DNA of 64,000 nucleotides from a virus, in the IMG/VR virus record IMGVR_UViG_3300025319_000005, positions 127,289-191,288 of that record, one strand, 5' to 3'. The first letter of the stretch is position 1, and each line of letters opens with the position of its first letter. The notes under the pieces are model-generated. The model saw only the letters and a list, made by a program, of their open reading frames with translations. It had not been told where the DNA came from and ran no database searches. Position numbers and translations under genes: made by a program. This document shows, one piece after another, positions 6,260-58,110 of the stretch.

Positions 6260-7036
6260 TTAAATAAAATATTTTGGAAACTTGTTAACTAACTTAAGAA
6301 AATTATTATACATATATTTTTCTCTATATTTTTCTTTATCCGGTATCCTTGAATCAATGTAAATTATATGGTCAAAAAGCCAATTTTCATGAGCAATCCT
6401 TATTGTTTCAGTTGTTCTATGGTCATTATCTGTTAATTTAAATTGGTTTACATGTATAAGTAAACTTTCAAAATCACATTTATATTCATTATCTTTTATG
6501 AATTCAAGAGAACTGTTAGGCATTTCAGCGAGAAACATATTTTCAACTCTTTTATTGTGTTGCTCTTTATTATGTTGAAATAATTCAAGCTCATTAACCC
6601 TTCTTACGTCAGTAATAACTATTTTTTTATTGTCTCCAATTTTTAATAATGCTCTGTTTGTCCAATAATGCATACCATTTTTTTCCTTCATTAATTCAGC
6701 AAACCAAATCATATAAGGTCTTAAAATTTCTTTTATCTCTGAGTTTTTTGGATTAAGAAAATTTACATCTTCAATACTAATTTCAATTCCTTTATCAATT
6801 AAATCATTAAATACTTGCGGTCTCATATATTCATCAATATCACCTTTAACAACATCACCAAAAGAAATTCTTTTAAAGCCAAGTTTTTCTACCATTAAAT
6901 TTCCAAAAGTATCTTTCCCCGATTTAGAATATCCACAACATCCAATTATTGTTTTATTTTTTAATAAATCAAAATTTATTTCACCATCTCCAGAAGTAAG
7001 TAATTCCCCCGGAATTTCAATATCAATTTTTTCCAT
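6260..7036 (-). CDS. Deoxynucleoside monophosphate kinase (T4 gp1-like)
   Basis: P-loop GYSKSGKDT, RISFGD and ITDVR motifs. Confidence 0.75.
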   Translation of the reverse strand: MEKIDIEIPGELLTSGDGEINFDLLKNKTIIGCCGYSKSGKDTFGNLMVEKLGFKRISFGDVVKGDIDEYMRPQVFNDLIDKGIEISIEDVNFLNPKNSEIKEILRPYMIWFAELMKEKNGMHYWTNRALLKIGDNKKIVITDVRRVNELELFQHNKEQHNKRVENMFLAEMPNSSLEFIKDNEYKCDFESLLIHVNQFKLTDNDHRTTETIRIAHENWLFDHIIYIDSRIPDKEKYREKYMYNNFLKLVNKFPKYFI

Positions 7037-7065
7037 ATCCAAATTTAAATATAAAAAACCACAAA

Positions 7066-9273
7066 TCAAAAATCAACAACATTATTATTGTCATTATGTG
7101 CAATATTTTGTAATTCCTGAACGTTGAAATTAAAATCCAACATTTCGTTTTCTATATGTTTTGCTTGTTGAATTGTTTCTGGCAATTTCAAATCATAACA
7201 ATTATTATATTCTTTTATTTCAAAGAATTTTTTAATAAAATCTTTTACTGAGTTAATTATTGTTTCGGTAGCTTTAGCATTATGTTTAGCTTTTAACTGA
7301 TTAAAAGTATATATTGTTTTTTTTGAACCATCAGAATCAATATTCGAATATTGTATATTTATACTAAGAGTAGCTCTATCCATAGTTTCTAAATCTTCAA
7401 CAGAATATATTACAAAACTTCCTTTTGCAACATTTGCACAATAAGTTTTAACACAATGACTCATTACTGATGATTCTTCATAAAATTTTTCCGGAGTATC
7501 AATTAAATTAAATTTGATATTATCAAAAATTCCTTCTGTATGTCTGAATTTATCTATGTGAATTTTTAAGTCTTCACTTAATTTTTTATCTGCAATCAAC
7601 CTAAAAGAAAGACTCAAAGAATTATGCATATCAACTAAAGCATCAAAAGTTTTTGATTTTAATATTTCAGTTAATTGAATCTCTACATTTATTAACATAA
7701 ATATAGTGTCCATATACAATTGAAGTATTTTTTCAAAATTAGCATCAGAGGTATGAAAGATTTTTAAAATATGGCAAAAATGTTTGTGGGTTATTTTAAA
7801 ATGTCCTATTCTGTTAATGCTTTGATTATACATATTTTGCACACAAACAATAAAGTCGTAAGCATCTTTTATATTATTATTTAATATTATTTTGTCAACT
7901 GTTTCAATTTCGTCAAAAGCAGAATTGTTATGTAAGAATCCATAAAACACTTGAGCAACTTCATCAAAATTTCTTTCTAAAAATAAGTCTACATAAAATT
8001 TTCTAAATTGTATATTTTTCAATCTCAATTTAATATCTTTATATATTGGAACCCTTGTGTCAACCTGTACTGTCGGATGAGTTGTTATTGAAAATAATAA
8101 ATCTTTTTTTTGGGGATGAGCTTTTAATTTTCTCTTTCTTTTTTTCTCTTCTGTTTTTATGTATTTAATTATTTTTGTATGTTTCGAAAATTCAGAAGTT
8201 ACTTTACTTTTAAACATAGTTTCCAAAATTGTTTTTGGATTGGTTGGATTTTTCTTTTTTAAGTTTGTCAAAGAACACACAAAAGAAGAATTTGTTAATA
8301 AATTAAGAAATTTATCCGGACCATAAGTAAGAATTAATGTCACGATGGGCTGATAAACTGAAAGTGACAACATTATACATAATCTTCTTTTTAAATATTG
8401 TATCCAAATATATCTGCTTGTAGACATATTTCCATTATAGTTACTGAGCGATTCTGGCTTATAATGACAATTATTTAAAAAAGATTCTTCACCACAATTA
8501 GTTGGAGAGCTACTTAAATTTCTAAATAAAGAATTCAAATACATTTCATCACGCTCTTTTTCTAATATTAAATTTATTCTATTAACATCCCTCTGGTCAC
8601 ATTTTGATTCTACTAGTTCACAAAATTTTATTAAAGGTTTTATTACCTGTCTTTCAAAAAGTCCTTGCGAAATTACATTTTCATATAATGCATTTAATGT
8701 CATATTGTTAACTATTGAAGAACAATGTTTAACAAGAAATCTAAACGGCACTGTAATTATTTTTTCCTTAATTTTTATCTTTATGGTATCGCTTTTTTTA
8801 GAAAGGTATAATGAACGATTACTAATATTCCTAAAAATCAATTTTTTTGTTGTAACAGAGACAAACACTATAGTTGCAAAAGAATATAAAGCATAAAAAT
8901 TTTCTTTTTCAACTACACCAAATCTTTTTGATGTAACATTTCCTTCTATTTCTTTAGAGTAAATTAACTTTACACCGGAAAGGGATTTGTACTCTTTACT
9001 GCAACTATTGCAAATTGTTTTTTGACTTGAAATTATTTTACCGTATCCATTTCTACTTATTGCTTCAAAAGGAATTTCAGTCATTTGACCACAAGTACAA
9101 TATAAAGCCCATCTTTTATTGGAATAATTGTTTTGAAAATGGCTGAATTCTTTTTTTACATTTGTTTCTGGTGTGCTTTCCACGTCATCAAAAGACGGAT
9201 TAGAAGAATCGTTATATTGTGGAGTCCTAACTAAATCAAATATAAGAGCAAGATATGGATTTTTTTCTTTCAA
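7066..9273 (-). CDS. Large protein with C-terminal PcfJ-like domain
   Basis: EESSVMSHCVKTY..IYSV..RATL..QLKAKHN. Confidence 0.7.
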   Translation of the reverse strand: MKEKNPYLALIFDLVRTPQYNDSSNPSFDDVESTPETNVKKEFSHFQNNYSNKRWALYCTCGQMTEIPFEAISRNGYGKIISSQKTICNSCSKEYKSLSGVKLIYSKEIEGNVTSKRFGVVEKENFYALYSFATIVFVSVTTKKLIFRNISNRSLYLSKKSDTIKIKIKEKIITVPFRFLVKHCSSIVNNMTLNALYENVISQGLFERQVIKPLIKFCELVESKCDQRDVNRINLILEKERDEMYLNSLFRNLSSSPTNCGEESFLNNCHYKPESLSNYNGNMSTSRYIWIQYLKRRLCIMLSLSVYQPIVTLILTYGPDKFLNLLTNSSFVCSLTNLKKKNPTNPKTILETMFKSKVTSEFSKHTKIIKYIKTEEKKRKRKLKAHPQKKDLLFSITTHPTVQVDTRVPIYKDIKLRLKNIQFRKFYVDLFLERNFDEVAQVFYGFLHNNSAFDEIETVDKIILNNNIKDAYDFIVCVQNMYNQSINRIGHFKITHKHFCHILKIFHTSDANFEKILQLYMDTIFMLINVEIQLTEILKSKTFDALVDMHNSLSLSFRLIADKKLSEDLKIHIDKFRHTEGIFDNIKFNLIDTPEKFYEESSVMSHCVKTYCANVAKGSFVIYSVEDLETMDRATLSINIQYSNIDSDGSKKTIYTFNQLKAKHNAKATETIINSVKDFIKKFFEIKEYNNCYDLKLPETIQQAKHIENEMLDFNFNVQELQNIAHNDNNNVVDF

Positions 9274-22041: not shown

Positions 22042-23076
22042 TTATCTAATTTCAACATTAAGACGCTCAATTGAGGTGAATTTTATATTTTCTTGGATTT
22101 CATTTATTTCTGTATTTGTTAAAGTGCGATCATTTGATTGAAAAACTATTCTATAACACTTAGATTGTTTACCTGTTTTTGGGTGAGCAAATTCATCTAT
22201 TAATGAAACATTTTCTATTAAATCGCCTCCATTTTCTCTCACAATTTCACAAAAATTATTATGAGCGAAATTAGTATCTGCCCAAAATGCCAAATCTCTG
22301 GATATTGGTGGATAACTTGAGTATTCCTTAAATTTAACTACATCTCCAGAAATAAATTGATTTATAAATCTTTCATCAGACGACCAAAAGTAACGTATGT
22401 CTGGTATTTCAAATAAGAGGATAGACAATCTTTCCAAACCTAATCCAAAAGCAAATGCAGCTTTATTTTCTAAACCACAATTTTCCATAATTTTAGGTTG
22501 AACAACCCCTGCACCAAGAACCTCTAACCATTTTCCCTGAAACATAACTTCAACTTCAAAAGATGGATGTGTAAAAGGAAAATAATCTTCATTGAAGCGG
22601 TATTCACAATTTGGAAAAAGAACATCAATAAGACCTTTTAATGTTTTTTTAAGTTCTTCTTCTGCGTTTTTTCCATCTTCAATTACACATACACCTTCCA
22701 TTTGGTGAAAAACCGGATAATGAGAGCTGTCAATATCATCTTTCCGATACACATCACCTGTAACTAAAAATTTTGTATGACCAGCAGTTAATAATTCATT
22801 TTGGTGAGCCGATGTATGGGTTCGTAATATATGATTCTCATCAAAATAATAAGTATCACTCAATGAACGTGCAGGATGATCTTTTGGAATAAGTAGTTTA
22901 TCAAAACAATTTTCAGTTGTAACCTTTGGATTTAAATCATCAAATTTTTTATATTCATCTCCAAAGTAATCATAGATTTTTCTTTTAATAATTTCTAAAG
23001 GATGATTTTTTTGATTGTGTAAATTTCTGCCAATTTTAGCTTGGATTCCGGGGGTAATGTTTGATTTAAATTCCAT
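22042..23076 (-). CDS. pheS: Single-chain (mitochondrial-type) phenylalanyl-tRNA synthetase
   Basis: HPAR..DTYY, LRTHTSAHQ, HYPVFHQMEG, FPFTHPSFE, AFGLGLERL, plus C-terminal FDX-ACB domain (YPPISRDLAF..TLTNTEIN). Confidence 0.92.
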   Translation of the reverse strand: MEFKSNITPGIQAKIGRNLHNQKNHPLEIIKRKIYDYFGDEYKKFDDLNPKVTTENCFDKLLIPKDHPARSLSDTYYFDENHILRTHTSAHQNELLTAGHTKFLVTGDVYRKDDIDSSHYPVFHQMEGVCVIEDGKNAEEELKKTLKGLIDVLFPNCEYRFNEDYFPFTHPSFEVEVMFQGKWLEVLGAGVVQPKIMENCGLENKAAFAFGLGLERLSILLFEIPDIRYFWSSDERFINQFISGDVVKFKEYSSYPPISRDLAFWADTNFAHNNFCEIVRENGGDLIENVSLIDEFAHPKTGKQSKCYRIVFQSNDRTLTNTEINEIQENIKFTSIERLNVEIR

Positions 23077-23163
23077 AAAATAATTGTTTAATTGTTTTTT
23101 GTACAAATTTATAAAAATAATATTAATTAACAATATATTAAACGGAAATCTTTTTAGAATGTT

Positions 23164-45106: not shown

Positions 45107-45562
45107 ATGAGAAACATCAGAAAAATGATAAGGAAAATCTTAATAGAGGAATCAAAACCCACGGTTGTTTATTCTGCTGTTGTTATTGAGAAACTTGAAG
45201 GTATTGGGAAGTTGGATTTGATTTTTAGTAAGTACATCGAAAACGGTTGGCAAAAACCGGTTCATTATCATATGACAATCGGACCGGGAAAATTTCCTGA
45301 GAGCTTGTATTTAAAAGGAGATTTAGATAAAGAAGTAACATTAGAAATAACGTCTGTAGGAATTTCAGAAAATGCTATAGCATTGGGAGTTTCAGGATAT
45401 TATTCAAGAAATGACAATCCACACATTACTATTGCTTTCAATAAAGAAAACGGAGGAAATCCGGAAGATAGCAAAGTGATTGAAAATTGGGGACATATTG
45501 ATAATTTTTATGTGACTGGAATAATAAGAGAAGTTGGCGAAAATAATTTAGTTATTAAATAA
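45107..45562 (+). CDS. 2H phosphoesterase (RNA-repair CPDase-like) with virion tag
   Basis: HMT and PHIT motifs; IRKMIRKILIEE N-terminus. Confidence 0.7.
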   Translation: MRNIRKMIRKILIEESKPTVVYSAVVIEKLEGIGKLDLIFSKYIENGWQKPVHYHMTIGPGKFPESLYLKGDLDKEVTLEITSVGISENAIALGVSGYYSRNDNPHITIAFNKENGGNPEDSKVIENWGHIDNFYVTGIIREVGENNLVIK

Positions 45563-45566
45563 TTAG

Positions 45567-45645
45567 TACCTTCAATAGGATTCGAACCTACATTTTCAGC
45601 TCCGTTACACTTATTGAGTCCGTAGCTCAATGTGGCTATAAAGGC
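45567..45645 (-). tRNA. Atypical tRNA-Arg(ACG) lacking a D arm
   Basis: Acceptor GCCTTTA/TGAAGGT; ATTGAG-CTACGGA-CTCAAT; GTAGG-TTCGAAT-CCTAT. Confidence 0.65.
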
Positions 45646-45646
45646 A

Positions 45647-46333
45647 TTATATTAATTCATATCGTTTTGCCCACTTTCTCACCGCAACATCACTAACTCC
45701 AAATTTTCTACCAAGTGCACAATATGAATTATTTTCTATCATTTCTTTTAATTCTTCTTTAGAGGGTCTGTTTTTTACTTTTCTAAAATTTAATCTAGGT
45801 ACATATTTTCTCGTTGTTTTTTTATTTGTTTTATTTTTTTTTGCATTTTTTCTGTCTACGCCAATTTTACCACGGCAATGAGTTTCTAATGTGAAATTGC
45901 AGTTTGGACATAAAAATCTTAAGTTTTCTAATCTATTATCATTATTTATTCCGTTTTCGTGGTCAATAATTAAACTAATTTTTTTACCTCTCCATATTTC
46001 TCCTTGTCCACATTCTTTACATTCATATTCTATCATGTTATTATCTCGTATTCTTTTTTTTAAACAAGCCCTTGCAACAGAACTGTTTTCACAAAAAATT
46101 TCTTCATCACTTTTCCTTAATAATCTGTCTTCATTAAACATTTTTTTAGCAAAATCACTACGGTTTAAAAAATGAGAAGTATCTATTGACCATTTATTTA
46201 AATTTGTTTTAAGTATTTTATAAGATGAAGAAGAATCGCTTCTTCCAGATTTTACTATAACATCTCTAAATGTGATGCTTTCAGATACTAATTTTTGTAA
46301 TTCTTCTTTTGTATATTCTTTATGTTCTTTCAT
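45647..46333 (-). CDS. HNH homing endonuclease
   Basis: CKECG..DHENGINNDNRLENLRFLCPNC. Confidence 0.88.
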   Translation of the reverse strand: MKEHKEYTKEELQKLVSESITFRDVIVKSGRSDSSSSYKILKTNLNKWSIDTSHFLNRSDFAKKMFNEDRLLRKSDEEIFCENSSVARACLKKRIRDNNMIEYECKECGQGEIWRGKKISLIIDHENGINNDNRLENLRFLCPNCNFTLETHCRGKIGVDRKNAKKNKTNKKTTRKYVPRLNFRKVKNRPSKEELKEMIENNSYCALGRKFGVSDVAVRKWAKRYELI

Positions 46334-46390
46334 AATTCTAACTTATTTTAATGTAAATAGGTTAGAATTTTTTAATAAAGTAAATAGTTG

Positions 46391-46466
46391 AGGATAAGAA
46401 GAGAATTAAACTCCTGTTAAATATGTTTTGCAGACATATCCCGATTTCAACATTGGGTACTTATCC
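46391..46466 (-). tRNA. tRNA-Cys(GCA)
   Basis: GGATAAG/CTTATCC; CT-GCA-AA; U discriminator. Confidence 0.85.
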
Positions 46467-46480
46467 TTGTAAAAATTAAA

Positions 46481-46750
46481 AAAGTAAAATCCTAAGTATA
46501 GCCGCGATTTTGTTCTATCTCATCATTTATCTGAAGGTATTGCTACCAACTGGAGACTTTAAACGTCTACCACGCACCTACCCGACTATCAACAACGTAA
46601 AGGTTCCCCGTCTACAGTCTGTTTGGCTTGCATCCTATGTTGCGGAAGTACATACGCTATTTGTTATAGCTTCTTCCTCCTTTTAAAAGATGTCGCGAAC
46701 TTCCTCTCGATTTTAAGAATCGAGCGATGAGTCCTTCAGGATTTTACTTT
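46481..46750 (-). ncRNA. rnpB: RNase P RNA (compact)
   Basis: P1 AAAGTAAAATCCT/AGGATTTTACTTT; CR-I-like GAGAGGAAGTTCGCG; CR-V-like AGAACAAAATCGCGGCTATA. Confidence 0.85.
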
Positions 46751-46755
46751 TCTTG

Positions 46756-46827
46756 AGGCTCCACTGACAATCGATGTCAGGACTCAAATTTACAAGATTC
46801 GTGTTTTGCCACTTAAACTACGGAGCC
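46756..46827 (-). tRNA. tRNA-Thr(TGT)
   Basis: Cloverleaf with CT-TGT-AA. Confidence 0.9.
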
Positions 46828-46843
46828 ATTATTTGTTCTTATG

Positions 46844-46917
46844 TGGAATCTACCGGCATTGAACCGGTCTCTCAGGCGTGCAAGGCAAGTGTTCTAAGCC
46901 AAATGAACTAAGACCCC
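46844..46917 (-). tRNA. tRNA-Ala(TGC)
   Basis: GGGGTCT/AGATTCC with G3:U70; CT-TGC-AC. Confidence 0.88.
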
Positions 46918-46955
46918 AATTTAATTTGTTCAAAGTACAAATTATTAAAAACTTT

Positions 46956-47031
46956 TGGCGAGTATGACCGGTCCTGACCCGGCGACCTCCTCATAGACAG
47001 TGAGGCATTCTTCCAACTGAACTACACACTC
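46956..47031 (-). tRNA. tRNA-Asp(GTC)
   Basis: Cloverleaf with encoded GCCA end. Confidence 0.9.
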
Positions 47032-47043
47032 ATTATTTTTTAA

Positions 47044-47352
47044 AAAAGTAAGACGCCATTTCGCTGATAGCGTTTTTTGTGTTCTGTTTAATGCGCCAAA
47101 GAACATCTGATTATGTTCAGCATTTAGCGTTCATGCTTGGTTATTATAACATACTAACATTCCTAATATTGTCTGATTACCTATTTTGAGTTTGCATAGT
47201 AGGTTGATTTTTATTTCCAGGGTAAAAATCAACAAACAAACCTAACGTCTGATAAACTTTATTTTTCATCCGGTAAACGTTTTGTACATTGTTTAGTTCA
47301 TTAGGCTAAAACAACACGTCTTTTTCACGGACAACATTAGTAACTTACTTTT
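47044..47352 (-). ncRNA. Unassigned structured RNA of about 300 nt
   Basis: Closing stem AAAAGTAAG/CTTACTTTT; long-range CTAATGTTGTC/GACAATATTAG; several hairpins; no ORF of 60 aa or more. Confidence 0.6.
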
Positions 47353-47356
47353 CTTG

Positions 47357-47430
47357 TAGTGCATCTGAGAATTGAACTCAGTACTTCCACGTTATCGGCG
47401 TGGCACTCTGGACCGATGAGTTAATGCACT
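47357..47430 (-). tRNA. tRNA-Ile(GAT)
   Basis: Cloverleaf with CC-GAT-AA loop. Confidence 0.9.
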
Positions 47431-47444
47431 GTTTTTATTTAAAG

Positions 47445-47517
47445 TCTAGGTGGCCTGCTCCGACCAGGCGGTCTCCAGTTCCCAAAACTGGCGGATTTCC
47501 AACTTTCCCACACCTAG
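47445..47517 (-). tRNA. tRNA-Pro(TGG)
   Basis: CTAGGTG/CACCTAG; TT-TGG-GA. Confidence 0.9.
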
Positions 47518-47555
47518 AAATTTTGTTTATCTTTCCAAACTGTCTTTTAATAAGA

Positions 47556-47618
47556 GTTCAAGCTCGGTTATCCACCGATTCGAAGGACTGCATTAGCCTT
47601 CTCTGCAGACACTTGAAC
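47556..47618 (-). ncRNA. Small three-stem RNA with a possible pseudoknot
   Basis: GTTCAAG/CTTGAAC, CTGCA/TGCAG, TCGGT/ACCGA stems; GAAGG/CCTTC. Confidence 0.5.
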
Positions 47619-47620
47619 AT

Positions 47621-47696
47621 TGGAGCGAAAAACCAGGTTCAAACTGGCGACCCCCAGAGTGGAAATCTGGCGCTCTATCAACTGAGCTATTTTCGC
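47621..47696 (-). tRNA. tRNA-Gly(TCC)
   Basis: Cloverleaf with TCCA end. Confidence 0.92.
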
Positions 47697-47785
47697 TTAT
47701 GTATATAATTCTCTCAGACCATATTACCAAGATTTACTTTGGACTCACCGTATTTTAAAAGTGAGCAGAATTGTATTTAATTAAA

Positions 47786-48733
47786 TTATTCTAATAATAA
47801 TTCATCAATTGTTAAAATTGAATTTAAATTATCTATTGTTTTTTTAAATATCATTTTAACATTAATGTTGTTTTGTTCTAATACTAAACTCATTTTTGTT
47901 TTATCTATTATTGAATAATATCCTTTAGTTTCTATGTATAAGTTAAAATTTGGCAAATAAAAATCTGGCACATACGTTTTTTCAACACCTTCTTTAATAT
48001 ATTGAATATATATTTTTCTAATCCACAATATTTTATTGTCATTTAACCATTGCGACATTTTTAATTCATATTTTCCTCTTAAAGAATATTCTTCACCAAT
48101 AATATTTTTTTGTTTATAAAATTTCACATGTTTAAAATTGTTACTTATTTCATTTTCTTCTAACATCTTGGAGTGAGATTTGCTAATTTTCGATTTTTGT
48201 TCAGAAGAAAGTGGCTTTCCTAATTGGTGATGTATTCTCTTACCAGTAGCATACATTTCTTTTTGTTGCTCAGATGCTTTATTTACCCTATTATCAGTTT
48301 CCTTTGTAAGTCCTCTTGACCATCCCATTTTTGATTTAGTCTCTGCATTACTGTATTTTTTATTTTTATATTCAACTCCATCCGGTGTATGCATTTGAAA
48401 TATATGACCACATATACCAAGTTTGTGAAATATTAATTCGCAATGAGGACATTTATATTTATCTACATCAACTTTCCAAGATTCATCTACTGTTATTTGT
48501 TTTTTATTAACTGTATTACATTTATTATAATGCCTTTCAAAATTAGAAACAGAAATATTTTTATTACATTTATCACAACATTTTGTGTTTTTAGGTTTTC
48601 CAAGTAAAGAAATACTTAAATTTTTTAATCTTTCTTTTAACTTTGGATTAGATTCACAATTTACTATATGAGCACCAAATTGTTGTGGGATCTCAAACTC
48701 AAAAGACTCTTTGCAATGCGGACAAGTTTTCAT
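47786..48733 (-). CDS. Homing endonuclease-like protein (Zn fingers, NUMOD3-like, PD-(D/E)XK)
   Basis: GWSRGLTKETD; YVPDFYLP..IETKG. Confidence 0.8.
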   Translation of the reverse strand: MKTCPHCKESFEFEIPQQFGAHIVNCESNPKLKERLKNLSISLLGKPKNTKCCDKCNKNISVSNFERHYNKCNTVNKKQITVDESWKVDVDKYKCPHCELIFHKLGICGHIFQMHTPDGVEYKNKKYSNAETKSKMGWSRGLTKETDNRVNKASEQQKEMYATGKRIHHQLGKPLSSEQKSKISKSHSKMLEENEISNNFKHVKFYKQKNIIGEEYSLRGKYELKMSQWLNDNKILWIRKIYIQYIKEGVEKTYVPDFYLPNFNLYIETKGYYSIIDKTKMSLVLEQNNINVKMIFKKTIDNLNSILTIDELLLE

Positions 48734-48802
48734 ACTTTTTTATTATAAATAGTATAAAAAATTGCAGGTTAGAAAATTGTTAGCACGTTATTGTTTTTTG
48801 AG

Positions 48803-48885
48803 TGGGAGTTGATGGAGACGAGCCACCCGAGTTTTAAAACAACCGATTTACAGTCGGTCCCGCTACCCCTACGGAATAAACTCCC
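48803..48885 (-). tRNA. tRNA-Tyr(GTA)
   Basis: CT-GTA-AA with long variable arm. Confidence 0.88.
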
Positions 48886-48897
48886 ATTTTAATGTTG

Positions 48898-48969
48898 CAC
48901 AGACGGTTATAATCGAAATAACTACGTGTAGTTTTTGGAGAACTCACCGACACCAAGCCTGTCGTCTGT
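48898..48969 (-). tRNA. tRNA-Trp(CCA)
   Basis: ACAGACG/CGTCTGT; CT-CCA-AA; G discriminator. Confidence 0.8.
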
Positions 48970-49008
48970 ATTTTATCTATTTTTTAAGCTGTAAGATAAT
49001 TAGCTAAG

Positions 49009-49080
49009 TAGCGAAAACTGGAATCGAACCAATGTAGACACAGCTTATGAGACTGGTGGGAAACCAACATCCTTTTCGCA
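49009..49080 (-). tRNA. tRNA-Met(CAT), initiator-like
   Basis: CT-CAT-AA; 1:72 mismatch. Confidence 0.75.
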
Positions 49081-49093
49081 ATATATTTTTTTG

Positions 49094-49166
49094 TAGCCCC
49101 TGCCGGTCCTGACCCGACGACTTCATTCATGTAAAAAATGCACTCTACCAACTGAGTTAAGGGGCT
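49094..49166 (-). tRNA. tRNA-Val(TAC)
   Basis: Cloverleaf with TT-TAC-AT. Confidence 0.9.
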
Positions 49167-49171
49167 ATTAG

Positions 49172-49245
49172 TAGCATATATCAGAATCAAACTGATGACC
49201 TTCCTCATATGAAAAGGACGCTCTAATCAACTGAGCTAATATGCT
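49172..49245 (-). tRNA. tRNA with CAT anticodon (Met elongator or Ile2)
   Basis: Cloverleaf with TT-CAT-AT. Confidence 0.88.
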
Positions 49246-49255
49246 ATTTAAAAAG

Positions 49256-49327
49256 AGCGGGTGATGAGGATTAAACTCACGGCCTCATCCTTGGCAAGGA
49301 TGCGCTCTATCGCTGAGCTACACCCGC
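49256..49327 (-). tRNA. tRNA-Gly(GCC)
   Basis: GCGGGTG/CACCCGC; TT-GCC-AA. Confidence 0.92.
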
Positions 49328-49400
49328 TTTTTTGATTATCAATATGTCAAATAACTCTGCAAACTTTTAAGTCATTGCTCGACTTGTAAACTTTTTAAGC

Positions 49401-49433
49401 AACAAAAAACCCGAACCTTTTTTAAGTCCGGGT
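49401..49433 (-). terminator. Attenuator terminator of tRNA operon 1
   Basis: ACCCGGAC..GTTCGGGT followed by TTTTTGTT. Confidence 0.85.
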
Positions 49434-49472
49434 GTGTTATGTTGTTTCCCTTTTAAGTTTTTATATCTTACT

Positions 49473-49601
49473 TCATGAAACAAAATGTTTTAACACACCC
49501 ATATTATCGCGGCTATAATCGCCAGGGGTAATACACGCATACCCGACTGTCGGCATGACTGCCCAAATCGTTGTAATTGTTGTATGTGTTAAATTTTTCA
49601 T
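49473..49601 (-). CDS. Leader peptide of tRNA operon 1 (42 aa)
   Basis: MKNLTHTTITTIWAVMPTVGYACITPGDYSRDNMGVLKHFVS*; contains antiterminator strand GGGTGTGTTA. Confidence 0.8.
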   Translation of the reverse strand: MKNLTHTTITTIWAVMPTVGYACITPGDYSRDNMGVLKHFVS

Positions 49602-49624
49602 TGAAGATGTTTTCTTTTTAATTA

Positions 49625-49740
49625 AACTTAAATAGTATAAAAAATTATTTTCTCAAATATTTCTTTCGACCAATTATAACGCAAAGATATAATTAAAGTT
49701 TAATAAAAAGCAAATTTATTTTCATTTATTTTTTATTTAA
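49625..49740 (-). promoter_or_regulatory. Promoter block of tRNA operon 1 (TTTG..TATCTTTG plus CTATTTA)
   Basis: Near-duplicate at about 57995-58110. Confidence 0.75.
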
Positions 49741-49913
49741 CTTGTAAAATCCTGATATTCAGCTAAATAATTTTTTGTAAAATCCTAAACATAATCGTAA
49801 AATCCTGTCATTGATAATATTAAACAAAAAATCCACAATTTTTTTAAGCAAGGGAGCCAACGAATTTATTCGTTGGAGTATGTCAGTCAATAATATTTCC
49901 TTGCAATTTGTTT

Positions 49914-50117
49914 TTACCAACCTTCTTTAGCAACTCCGGATGCAACTGCAGCTTCTGCGTTAGCAGAGCTCATTATAGCACACATTTTATGTCCTTCTTT
50001 AGTTTCTCCTTTACATACGTATCCACCTTTTGCGTTTTTAGATATGATAGGATTAACGAAAGTTTGTTTGCTTTTTAATTTCATACAATATCCTTCTAAT
50101 ACGATTAATGTGCTCAT
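49914..50117 (-). CDS. DUF5679-like small protein
   Basis: GYCMKLKSK..G.HKM; paralog of 51512-51712. Confidence 0.65.
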   Translation of the reverse strand: MSTLIVLEGYCMKLKSKQTFVNPIISKNAKGGYVCKGETKEGHKMCAIMSSANAEAAVASGVAKEGW

Positions 50118-51511: not shown

Positions 51512-51712
51512 TTAAAACCCTTCTTTAGTAACTCCAGATGCTACGGCAGCTTCTGCGTTGGCTTTACTCATTAATAGACTCATCTTATGTCCATCTTTAC
51601 TTTCGCCCTTTGCAATGTACCCACCCTTTTTAGTTAAGCTAATAACAGCATTAACCATTACTCCCTTTGATTTTGTCTTAAGACAATAAGCCTCTAATAC
51701 TACTTTTTCCAT
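51512..51712 (-). CDS. DUF5679-like small protein
   Basis: EAYCLKTKSK; paralog of 49914-50117. Confidence 0.65.
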   Translation of the reverse strand: MEKVVLEAYCLKTKSKGVMVNAVISLTKKGGYIAKGESKDGHKMSLLMSKANAEAAVASGVTKEGF

Positions 51713-55501: not shown

Positions 55502-55538
55502 AAAAAAGCCTGAATCTACACAGAGACTCAGGCTTTTT
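55502..55538 (-). terminator. Attenuator terminator upstream of the Lys tRNAs
   Basis: AAGCCTGAGTCT..AGATTCAGGCTTTTTT. Confidence 0.85.
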
Positions 55539-55553
55539 GGACTTATAAAAAAG

Positions 55554-55619
55554 TCAATGAGCTATCGTCCCCGGAGACCAGGGTTTCTTAGATTTTTTTA
55601 TTTTGATTATTGTTAACAT
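55554..55619 (-). CDS. Lys-rich leader peptide (21 aa)
   Basis: MLTIIKIKKSKKPWSPGTIAH*. Confidence 0.7.
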   Translation of the reverse strand: MLTIIKIKKSKKPWSPGTIAH

Positions 55620-57801: not shown

Positions 57802-57822
57802 ATTATTTTCAAAAAACGTTAT

Positions 57823-57858
57823 AAAACAAAAAACCCGAACTCTTTTGTAAGTCCGGGT
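57823..57858 (-). terminator. Attenuator terminator of tRNA operon 2
   Basis: ACCCGGAC..GTTCGGGT followed by TTTTTGTTTT; homologous to 49401-49433. Confidence 0.85.
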
Positions 57859-57886
57859 GTGTTTATGTTGTTTTAATTTTAATCTT

Positions 57887-57976
57887 TTACGATTCAAAAG
57901 GACAATACACACCCGCTCGGCTTTTATTACTAAAACTCGATTTGTTAAAATGCTTATGTGTATTATTTGTTGTCAT
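57887..57976 (-). CDS. Leader peptide of tRNA operon 2 (29 aa)
   Basis: MTTNNTHKHFNKSSFSNKSRAGVYCPFES*; contains antiterminator strand CGGGTGTGT. Confidence 0.8.
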   Translation of the reverse strand: MTTNNTHKHFNKSSFSNKSRAGVYCPFES

Positions 57977-57994
57977 TTTGTATTCTTAATATTC

Positions 57995-58110
57995 TTTAAA
58001 TAGTATAAAAAATTATTTTTCTAAAAATTCTTATTATCAATTATAACGCAAAGATATAATTAAAGTTTCAAAAAAGCAAATTTATTTTGATTTATTTTTT
58101 ATTTCATTAA
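57995..58110 (-). promoter_or_regulatory. Promoter block of tRNA operon 2
   Basis: TATCTTTG at 58049-58056 and CTATTTA; duplicate of 49625-49740. Confidence 0.75.

Follow-up and report, generated by a model that had tools for sequence, protein, structure and literature searches.

A short leader open reading frame (ORF) whose codons match the tRNA genes that follow it lies, together with a predicted terminator and a competing helix, in front of a phage tRNA array, and this element is real and conserved. We read it, with a probability of about 0.85, as a ribosome-mediated transcription attenuator of the trp (ribosome-stalling) type that would gate the phage tRNA operon. Attenuation was also the original prediction made for this DNA, and the conservation of the element, the co-variation of leaders with arrays, the position at which the codon match stops and the covariation of the helices all fit it.

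Genomic setting and features of array 1

The virus record (IMG/VR IMGVR_UViG_3300025319_000005) comprises 212,632 bases with a GC content of 29%, and the window analysed here is a 64,000-nucleotide part of it. Genes recognised by Pfam in the window include a capsid-protein-like fragment, thymidylate synthase, methylases and a PheRS-like gene (22042–23133, −; a single chain in which the catalytic core is fused to an FDX-ACB anticodon-binding domain), and ARAGORN placed two tRNA arrays there, both on the minus strand. The leader 1 transcript is predicted to start near 49677, and the promoter before the second array (leader 2) is near-identical to that of leader 1. As both array promoters match the Bacteroidetes consensus TTTG/TANNTTTG given in the available text of PMC6847099, the phage host is probably a member of that phylum, the Bacteroidota. 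The features of leader 1 and array 1 are listed here in the direction of transcription.

49682–49714 (−): Bacteroidota-type promoter of leader 1, with a −33 element TTTG at 49714–49711, a −7 element TATCTTTG at 49689–49682 and a spacer of 21
49473–49601 (−): leader 1 ORF of 42 codons, from the ORF list
49584–49593 (−): segment 1, codons 3–6, predicted to pair with segment 2 in an untranslated leader (duplex −11.4 kcal/mol)
49509–49583 (−): sensor codons 7–31, with all 12 amino acids of array 1, from composition, permutation and position tests
49489–49501 (−): segment 2, the antiterminator strand, codons 34–38 (duplex with segment 3 −17.3 kcal/mol)
49404–49439 (−): segments 3 and 4, terminator and U tract (stem-loop 49433–49409, 10 bp, −13.2 kcal/mol)
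49346–49385 (−): small hairpin (49385–49369) and boxA-like motif (from 49355) between the terminator and the first tRNA, conserved at 85–92% in relatives
48802–49327 (−): tRNA Gly(GCC), CAT, Val(TAC), CAT (initiator-like), Trp(CCA) and Tyr(GTA) from ARAGORN, the CAT tRNAs being named by anticodon (Met or Ile2)
47786–48733 (−): endonuclease gene inside array 1 (Pfam Phage_endo_I, E = 9.7e-9)
46755–47696 (−): tRNA Gly(TCC), Pro(TGG), Ile(GAT), Asp(GTC), Ala(TGC) and Thr(TGT) from ARAGORN
46483–46744 (−): RNase P RNA-like gene inside array 1 (Rfam RF00010, 39.2 bits, E = 6.4e-10)
46390–46466 (−): tRNA-Cys(GCA) from ARAGORN
45647–46333 (−): HNH endonuclease-like gene (Pfam HNH, E = 8.7e-4, below the cut-off)
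45567–45645 (−): non-standard tRNA with an ACG anticodon that lacks a D-arm and has its long extra arm after the anticodon arm (Rfam only, 34.6 bits; function putative)

Ten of the 14 tRNAs of array 1 were called by ARAGORN under default settings, and Met, Trp and Tyr were called at a relaxed score (a score of 80 with introns gave 354 calls, mostly false). The claim that a 42-residue leader covers the 12 amino acids of 14 tRNAs holds, with one caveat: 13 of the tRNAs are ARAGORN-callable, and the fourteenth, Arg(ACG), is non-standard and D-armless. Similar tRNAs with Arg anticodons and a long extra arm also occur in L032, L044, L093, L140 and L141, and the D-armless tRNAs seen carry Arg anticodons (ACG, CCT, TCG and TCT); a regular-expression search for D-armless Arg tRNAs found none, and a search by terms found no description of D-armless tRNAs in the text of PMC5389517 covered. 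The RF00010 match lies below the gathering score of 100 and was absent in a smaller search, and both ends of the RNase P RNA-like gene are conserved at the same place in relatives.

Several further sequences were noted in and around the arrays. Two spacers in array 1 (47350–47035 and 47622–47530, −) are non-tRNA sequences with 68–86% identity in relatives and no same-strand Rfam match, and are possibly unknown structured RNAs. Two similar ORFs of 66–67 amino acids lie at 49914–50117 and 51512–51712 (−), the first of these having no Pfam match. In G000 C1, isolated tRNA-like genes whose anticodon loops read GAA are found outside the arrays at 73045–73119, 85424–85497 and about 72640–72740, with no leader seen before them. 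The phage record, which may be incomplete, showed no array for Leu, Glu or Gln.

Leader 1 encodes the amino acids of its own array

When re-read in the ORF (49601..49473, −), residues 7–29 are 23 consecutive codons for amino acids of the array (TTITTIWAVMPTVGYACITPGDY), as had been claimed; they carry 11 of the 12 amino acids, and Arg (CGC) at residue 31, also confirmed, completes the set past one out-of-set Ser. The composition is likewise unlike that of the proteome, in agreement with the original prediction, with the 12 amino acids making up 48% of the 182 genome ORFs and the longest in-set run there being 15. The leader run of 23 is the longest across all six frames of the 212-kb genome. 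Dinucleotide shuffles of the leader ORF gave a run of 23 in 2/100,000 cases and mononucleotide shuffles in 0/100,000, and a run of at least 23 is given in leader 1 by only 17 of the 125,970 possible sets of 12 amino acids. Most of the amino acids are sensed by just 1–3 codons, and classical attenuator leaders have more control codons per amino acid.

The leader segment is richer in GC (48%) than the genome (29%), and this bias makes these amino acids more frequent (the shuffles average 13–16 in-set residues of 23). The ORF might thus encode a small protein with a function of its own, or have arisen by chance within a structured RNA of higher GC content, the terminator being constitutive or leaky. 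We consider this explanation largely refuted and very improbable, since GC-matched shuffles of the 69-nt sensor stretch reach 23/23 in 1–4 of 200,000 cases, the match of leader 2 to its array is made with AT-rich codons, and both the permutation and position tests given below and the lack of protein-like conservation stand against it. The leader 1 ORF had no Pfam match.

A second leader and a Lys leader in the window

Two further elements precede tRNA genes in the window.

57828–58080 (−): leader 2, paralogous, with promoter, ORF and the antiterminator and terminator of leader 1, upstream of tRNAs Phe, Ser, Ser, Asn, His and Lys
55503–55619 (−): Lys-rich ORF of 21 codons (55619–55554) and strong terminator (55538–55503), before three tRNA-Lys

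The leader 2 ORF (57976–57887, −) has 29 codons and is rich in N, H, K, F and S, the amino acids of its array (in which Ser(GCT) comes from relaxed ARAGORN and Ser(TGA) was read by hand). Over the last 16 codons before the antiterminator, leaders 1 and 2 each match their own array at 14/16 codons and the other array at 2/16. The Lys leader, with five Lys codons in a row, is conserved in G001 and G004; no antiterminator was found for it, and its minimum free energy (MFE) folds always kept the terminator.

Predicted RNA switch

The 10-mer at 49500–49491 is the exact complement of 49439–49430, which overlaps the 5′ arm of the terminator at 49433–49430, and here the original prediction was correct to the base (the antiterminator partner as a whole, 49439–49429, overlaps this arm). 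The layout is the classical 1:2 / 2:3 / 3:4 arrangement, with segment 1 as a fourth segment added to those first described. As in an attenuator, the antiterminator (2:3) and protector (1:2) helices would be mutually exclusive, an intrinsic terminator predicted from sequence and covariation stands before the first tRNA gene, a short conserved ORF lies between the promoter and the tRNA genes, and the putative control codons are matched to the product of the operon.

In the mechanism we propose, the Bacteroidota-type promoter would start the leader 1 transcript and the leader ORF would be translated. During quick decoding, a ribosome at codon 32 or later would cover segment 2, which would let the terminator fold and end the transcript ahead of tRNA-Gly. 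A ribosome lingering at any of codons 7–31, where the matching charged tRNA is scarce, would leave segment 2 to pair with the 5′ arm of the terminator, and with the antiterminator formed, transcription would run on through the 14 tRNA genes and the gene for the RNase P-like RNA. Where the leader is not translated, segments 1 and 2 would pair and termination would follow. The switch would thus release the very tRNAs that decode its sensor, which would amount to negative feedback on tRNA supply.

The expectation that a stalled ribosome frees the antiterminator and full translation favours termination was borne out in one of two folding models and not in the other. In equilibrium rather than cotranscriptional folds of the RNA ahead of the ribosome only, with the switch point set partly by the chosen 13-nt mask, the antiterminator probability was 0.55–0.99 for A-site codons 1–30, 0.53 at codon 31 and at most 0.06 from codon 32 (0.23 without a ribosome), giving a switch at codons 31–32. 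With a footprint-only mask, also at equilibrium, which leaves the upstream RNA free to pair forward, the terminator wins for codons 12–29 with a probability of 0.78–0.95. Because of this second result the attenuator model needs segment 1 to be unavailable, and steric hindrance or a trailing ribosome could make it so; segment 1 lies inside the footprint of an initiating ribosome, and a trailing ribosome would therefore be expected to hide it. We note that the antiterminator state is ahead by only 1.0–2.6 kcal/mol in these equilibrium folds, and that the G002 A-type leader (the type to which leader 1 belongs) has an equilibrium antiterminator probability of at most 0.29 with the full stem, so that its switch would depend on the order of folding.

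The hairpin and motif past the terminator, the latter of which we take to be boxA-like, presumably have a role in the element, and related motifs occur at 57817, 57551 and 57024. They raise the question of whether read-through is set by the nascent peptide, through arrest of the ribosome, or by a protein, through an antitermination factor of phage or host origin that acts near the boxA-like site, with the codons being secondary. Such control would draw on the conservation of the hairpin and motif, on the recurrence of W, MP, C and DY/GDY in the A-type peptides and on the marginal equilibrium folding, but the boxA-like site is downstream of the terminator and so could not prevent termination, unrelated peptides share one RNA layout, and substitutions in the peptides are mostly non-synonymous. 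We find control of this kind quite improbable.

A T-box-like riboswitch, which would bind uncharged tRNA directly and without translation, has in its favour that T-boxes control tRNA-related genes via a terminator and antiterminator, and the G-rich strand of the leader loosely resembles a T-box motif. The T-box model has a stem I with a specifier loop and a bulged antiterminator, whereas the antiterminator helix here is unbulged, and a T-box would leave the conserved open frame and its matched codons unexplained. No match to a T-box or other cis-regulatory Rfam family was found over 45400–49800 at the gathering score or with E ≤ 1, and we regard the probability of this mechanism as negligible. 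No curated Rfam leader-peptide family matched the leader either, the sole match over it being MicC at chance level (E = 0.94).

Leaders in related phages and covariation of the helices

The frame of leader 1 is open in all seven A-type leaders compared (that of the window included), which are 129–141 nt long and differ by whole codons, and the other two frames contain 2–4 stops. In a comparison of six of these leaders, non-synonymous substitutions outnumber synonymous ones (144 vs 49), yet the sensor keeps to the set at 121 of its 126 residues, which suggests that selection acts on the class of codon and not on a protein product. G001, a complete genome of 519 kb, has A and B leaders and a third leader with Leu, Arg, Gln, Glu and Ile codons, the last preceding a Leu/Arg/Glu/Ile/Gln array. 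In G002 the Val, Asp and Met tRNAs are found in the B array, and the corresponding residues are present in the B leader and absent from the A-type sensor. ARAGORN calls of 'Pro(AGG)' in G001 and G004 were read by hand as Cys(GCA) and rejected.

An RNA-only pattern made up of helix and U-tract letters, and so blind to peptides and tRNAs, found 88 loci in IMG/VR with 73 distinct matches. The terminator hairpin is closed in 26 matches, 20 of these lying before or on a tRNA gene; amongst those without a closed hairpin, 0/47 lie before a tRNA and one is inside a tRNA. In each of the 20 tRNA-associated matches a short ORF extends across the antiterminator strand. In metagenomes, the terminator, ORF and tRNA occur together in 21 of 33 distinct matches. 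Many matches in the two collections are near-duplicates, representing roughly ten types by reading. A narrower RNA pattern matched only three known contigs. A blastn search of annotated phages returned 19 records that matched the tRNA part only, with the leader covered in none. Three sets of RNA contigs from the same study as the phage record gave no match over 45500–50000, which speaks neither for nor against the element.

Across 24 aligned leaders, whose relatedness inflates these figures, 96% of the terminator cells are paired with 26 two-sided changes (0/500 shuffles as high), and 87.5% of the antiterminator cells are paired with 14 two-sided changes (above 500/500 shuffles). The search pattern fixed 4/9 terminator pairs and 6/11 antiterminator pairs, and those six therefore carry no covariation information, while two-sided changes are seen in 5/11 antiterminator pairs. 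When strands were permuted amongst eight leaders, own-leader pairing was among about the best 3 (1:2) and the best 11 (2:3) of 40,320 permutations. L083, in which a tRNA acceptor stem makes up the helix, was for this reason left out of this permutation and of alignment A3. In this locus (6940–7100) the leader ORF runs into tRNA-Trp. The acceptor stem of this tRNA replaces the antiterminator, and its 3′ strand can pair with sequence further downstream to give a terminator, so that L083 may be a variant in which the first tRNA would act as the switch.

In cellular genomes the pattern was found at 102 loci with 97 distinct matches, full flanks being available for 80 only, and for this one motif (other helix sequences are possible) none of the 97 is a leader before a tRNA array. 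Three cellular matches near a tRNA were rejected, two being the acceptor stem of tRNA-Val itself and one unrelated. A Balneolia metagenome-assembled genome carries, in L145 (2565–2700), an ORF of 21 codons with Arg codons at its end, accompanied by a terminator and by the letters of the helix pattern. It is placed before two genes which by reading resemble arginine biosynthesis enzymes, and may be a cellular relative of the leader family. L155, L199, L225 and L229 are bacterial matches of the helix pattern with strong terminators (L155 and L199 are named Acidobacteriota), two of them with a short Lys/Arg/Thr-rich ORF, and all precede a gene which by reading resembles aspartate-semialdehyde dehydrogenase.

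Leaders co-vary with their arrays

We compared the match of leaders to arrays under permutation, using one leader per type and ending arrays at gaps of more than 1.5 kb. The true assignment of eight leaders scored 7.06 against a permutation mean of 3.49 and was the best of 40,320, and for the six leaders outside the two types of the window it was the best of 720; it should be noted that the tRNA sets behind these ranks (ARAGORN calls plus hand-checked misses) were curated after the peptides had been seen. Near-duplicates were left out, as were L024, L051, L089 and L092, whose arrays cover most amino acids, and the C-type and Lys leaders, which were found by other routes; L083 was kept and scored without its Trp.

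The match is also limited in position. In 12 partly related leaders the own-array match is 0.75–1.0 over codons −17 to −3 relative to segment 2, falls to 0.5 at −2 and −1 and is at background from there on. It thus ends some three codons short of the antiterminator, a distance of roughly one ribosome footprint, as a footprint would predict. It extends to isoacceptors as well: ATA makes up 43% of Ile codons genome-wide, and in the sensors it accounts for 0/10 Ile codons in four leaders before Ile(GAT) arrays and 8/10 in three before Ile(TAT) (Fisher p = 7e-4, with lineages that are not independent). In L013 (4590–5290, from G002), three tRNA genes follow a leader of 24 codons in which ATA and AGA/AGG are common: tRNA-Ile(TAT), a tRNA split by an intron and hand-read as Arg(TCT), and a CAT tRNA. 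This suggests that the CAT tRNA is Ile2.

This matching bears on whether the leader might be a general translation gauge, which would be translated and switch the terminator according to how active ribosomes are in general, or to the stage of infection, and not according to particular tRNAs. Twelve amino acids with so few codons each for most would be a possible broad test of speed, and the four distant leaders left out of the permutation do precede arrays covering most amino acids. However, each leader follows the array that it precedes, even in the choice between ATA and ATT/ATC for Ile and where tRNAs have moved from one array to another. A gauge would have no need of this, and we judge this explanation unlikely, although it is the least unlikely of the alternatives.

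Comparison with known systems and likely trigger

Leader-peptide attenuators include trpL and hisL, with thrL and ilvL as multivalent leaders, and E. coli pheM/pheST is an attenuator of aminoacyl-tRNA synthetase genes. With the amino-acid operon attenuators the phage leaders share a short leader ORF with control codons, the 1:2, 2:3 and 3:4 helices, a U-tract terminator and stalling that would free segment 2, and the available text of PMC3082878 describes a four-segment layout for the E. coli pheL/pheA leader. They differ from these operons in being phage-borne, in that they would control non-coding tRNA genes rather than enzymes, in covering 12 amino acids in one leader with few repeats of each, in splitting the code among the separate leaders of the arrays with codons that follow the anticodons, and in having segment 1 upstream of the control codons and not within them. 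With pheM/pheST they would share the principle that stalling reports the supply of charged tRNA and raises a component of the translation machinery, but the output in that case is the synthetase for one amino acid and here would be the tRNAs themselves.

Amongst tRNA operons, the Anabaena trn operon has in common with array 1 a tRNA array with a homing-endonuclease gene and a link to translational stress (PMC8421152), and in the main text of that paper the terms 'attenuat' and 'leader' are absent and no leader peptide is described. The term 'attenuat' is also absent from the main text on huge phages (PMC7162821). No published case of leader-peptide attenuation of tRNA genes was found in the literature searched, which covered few subscription journals and no supplements. 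Such control is known for amino-acid genes, and judged by its sequence the phage element would work like an attenuator of the trp/phe kind.

We think that the trigger is likely to be a shortage of working tRNA. Codon choice in the leaders follows the anticodons, which makes the supply of working tRNA a more likely input than the amino acid alone, and extra tRNA would be no cure for amino-acid starvation. Host anticodon nucleases are one known cause of such a shortage that phage tRNAs counter, and by analogy are a possible trigger: in the available text of PMC11555353 and PMC12409363, the tRNA-Tyr of T5 and SP15 counters retron-Eco7, and tRNA-Lys counters PrrC and PARIS. The arrays described here would share with these the replacement of host tRNAs destroyed on infection, for which the level of expression matters. 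The T5 tRNAs are described with a strong promoter in the text of PMC11555353 available, from which 'attenuat' is absent, whereas expression here would be conditional.

Implications for large phages

Why phages carry tRNAs is a long-standing question, with codon bias, decay of host tRNAs and defence against anticodon nucleases as the answers offered. A sensor placed before the tRNAs makes this question testable, because the condition that opens the switch would be the condition that the tRNAs serve. It is conceivable, though we put it at somewhat short of an even chance, that large phages self-test the decoding capacity of their host, with each array gated by its own codon-matched sensor and the sensors together covering most of the code by isoacceptor; tRNAs lost to an anticodon nuclease or to infection-driven decay would be detected, and replacements, along with RNase P RNA for their maturation, would be transcribed only then. 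If the attenuation reading is true, attenuation reaches beyond enzymes to tRNA genes, where a single stretch of 25 codons would take 12 inputs and the negative feedback would be direct. The leaders would then predict which amino acids are served by unusual tRNAs, such as the D-armless Arg form, and could act as small reporters of tRNA supply in Bacteroidota.
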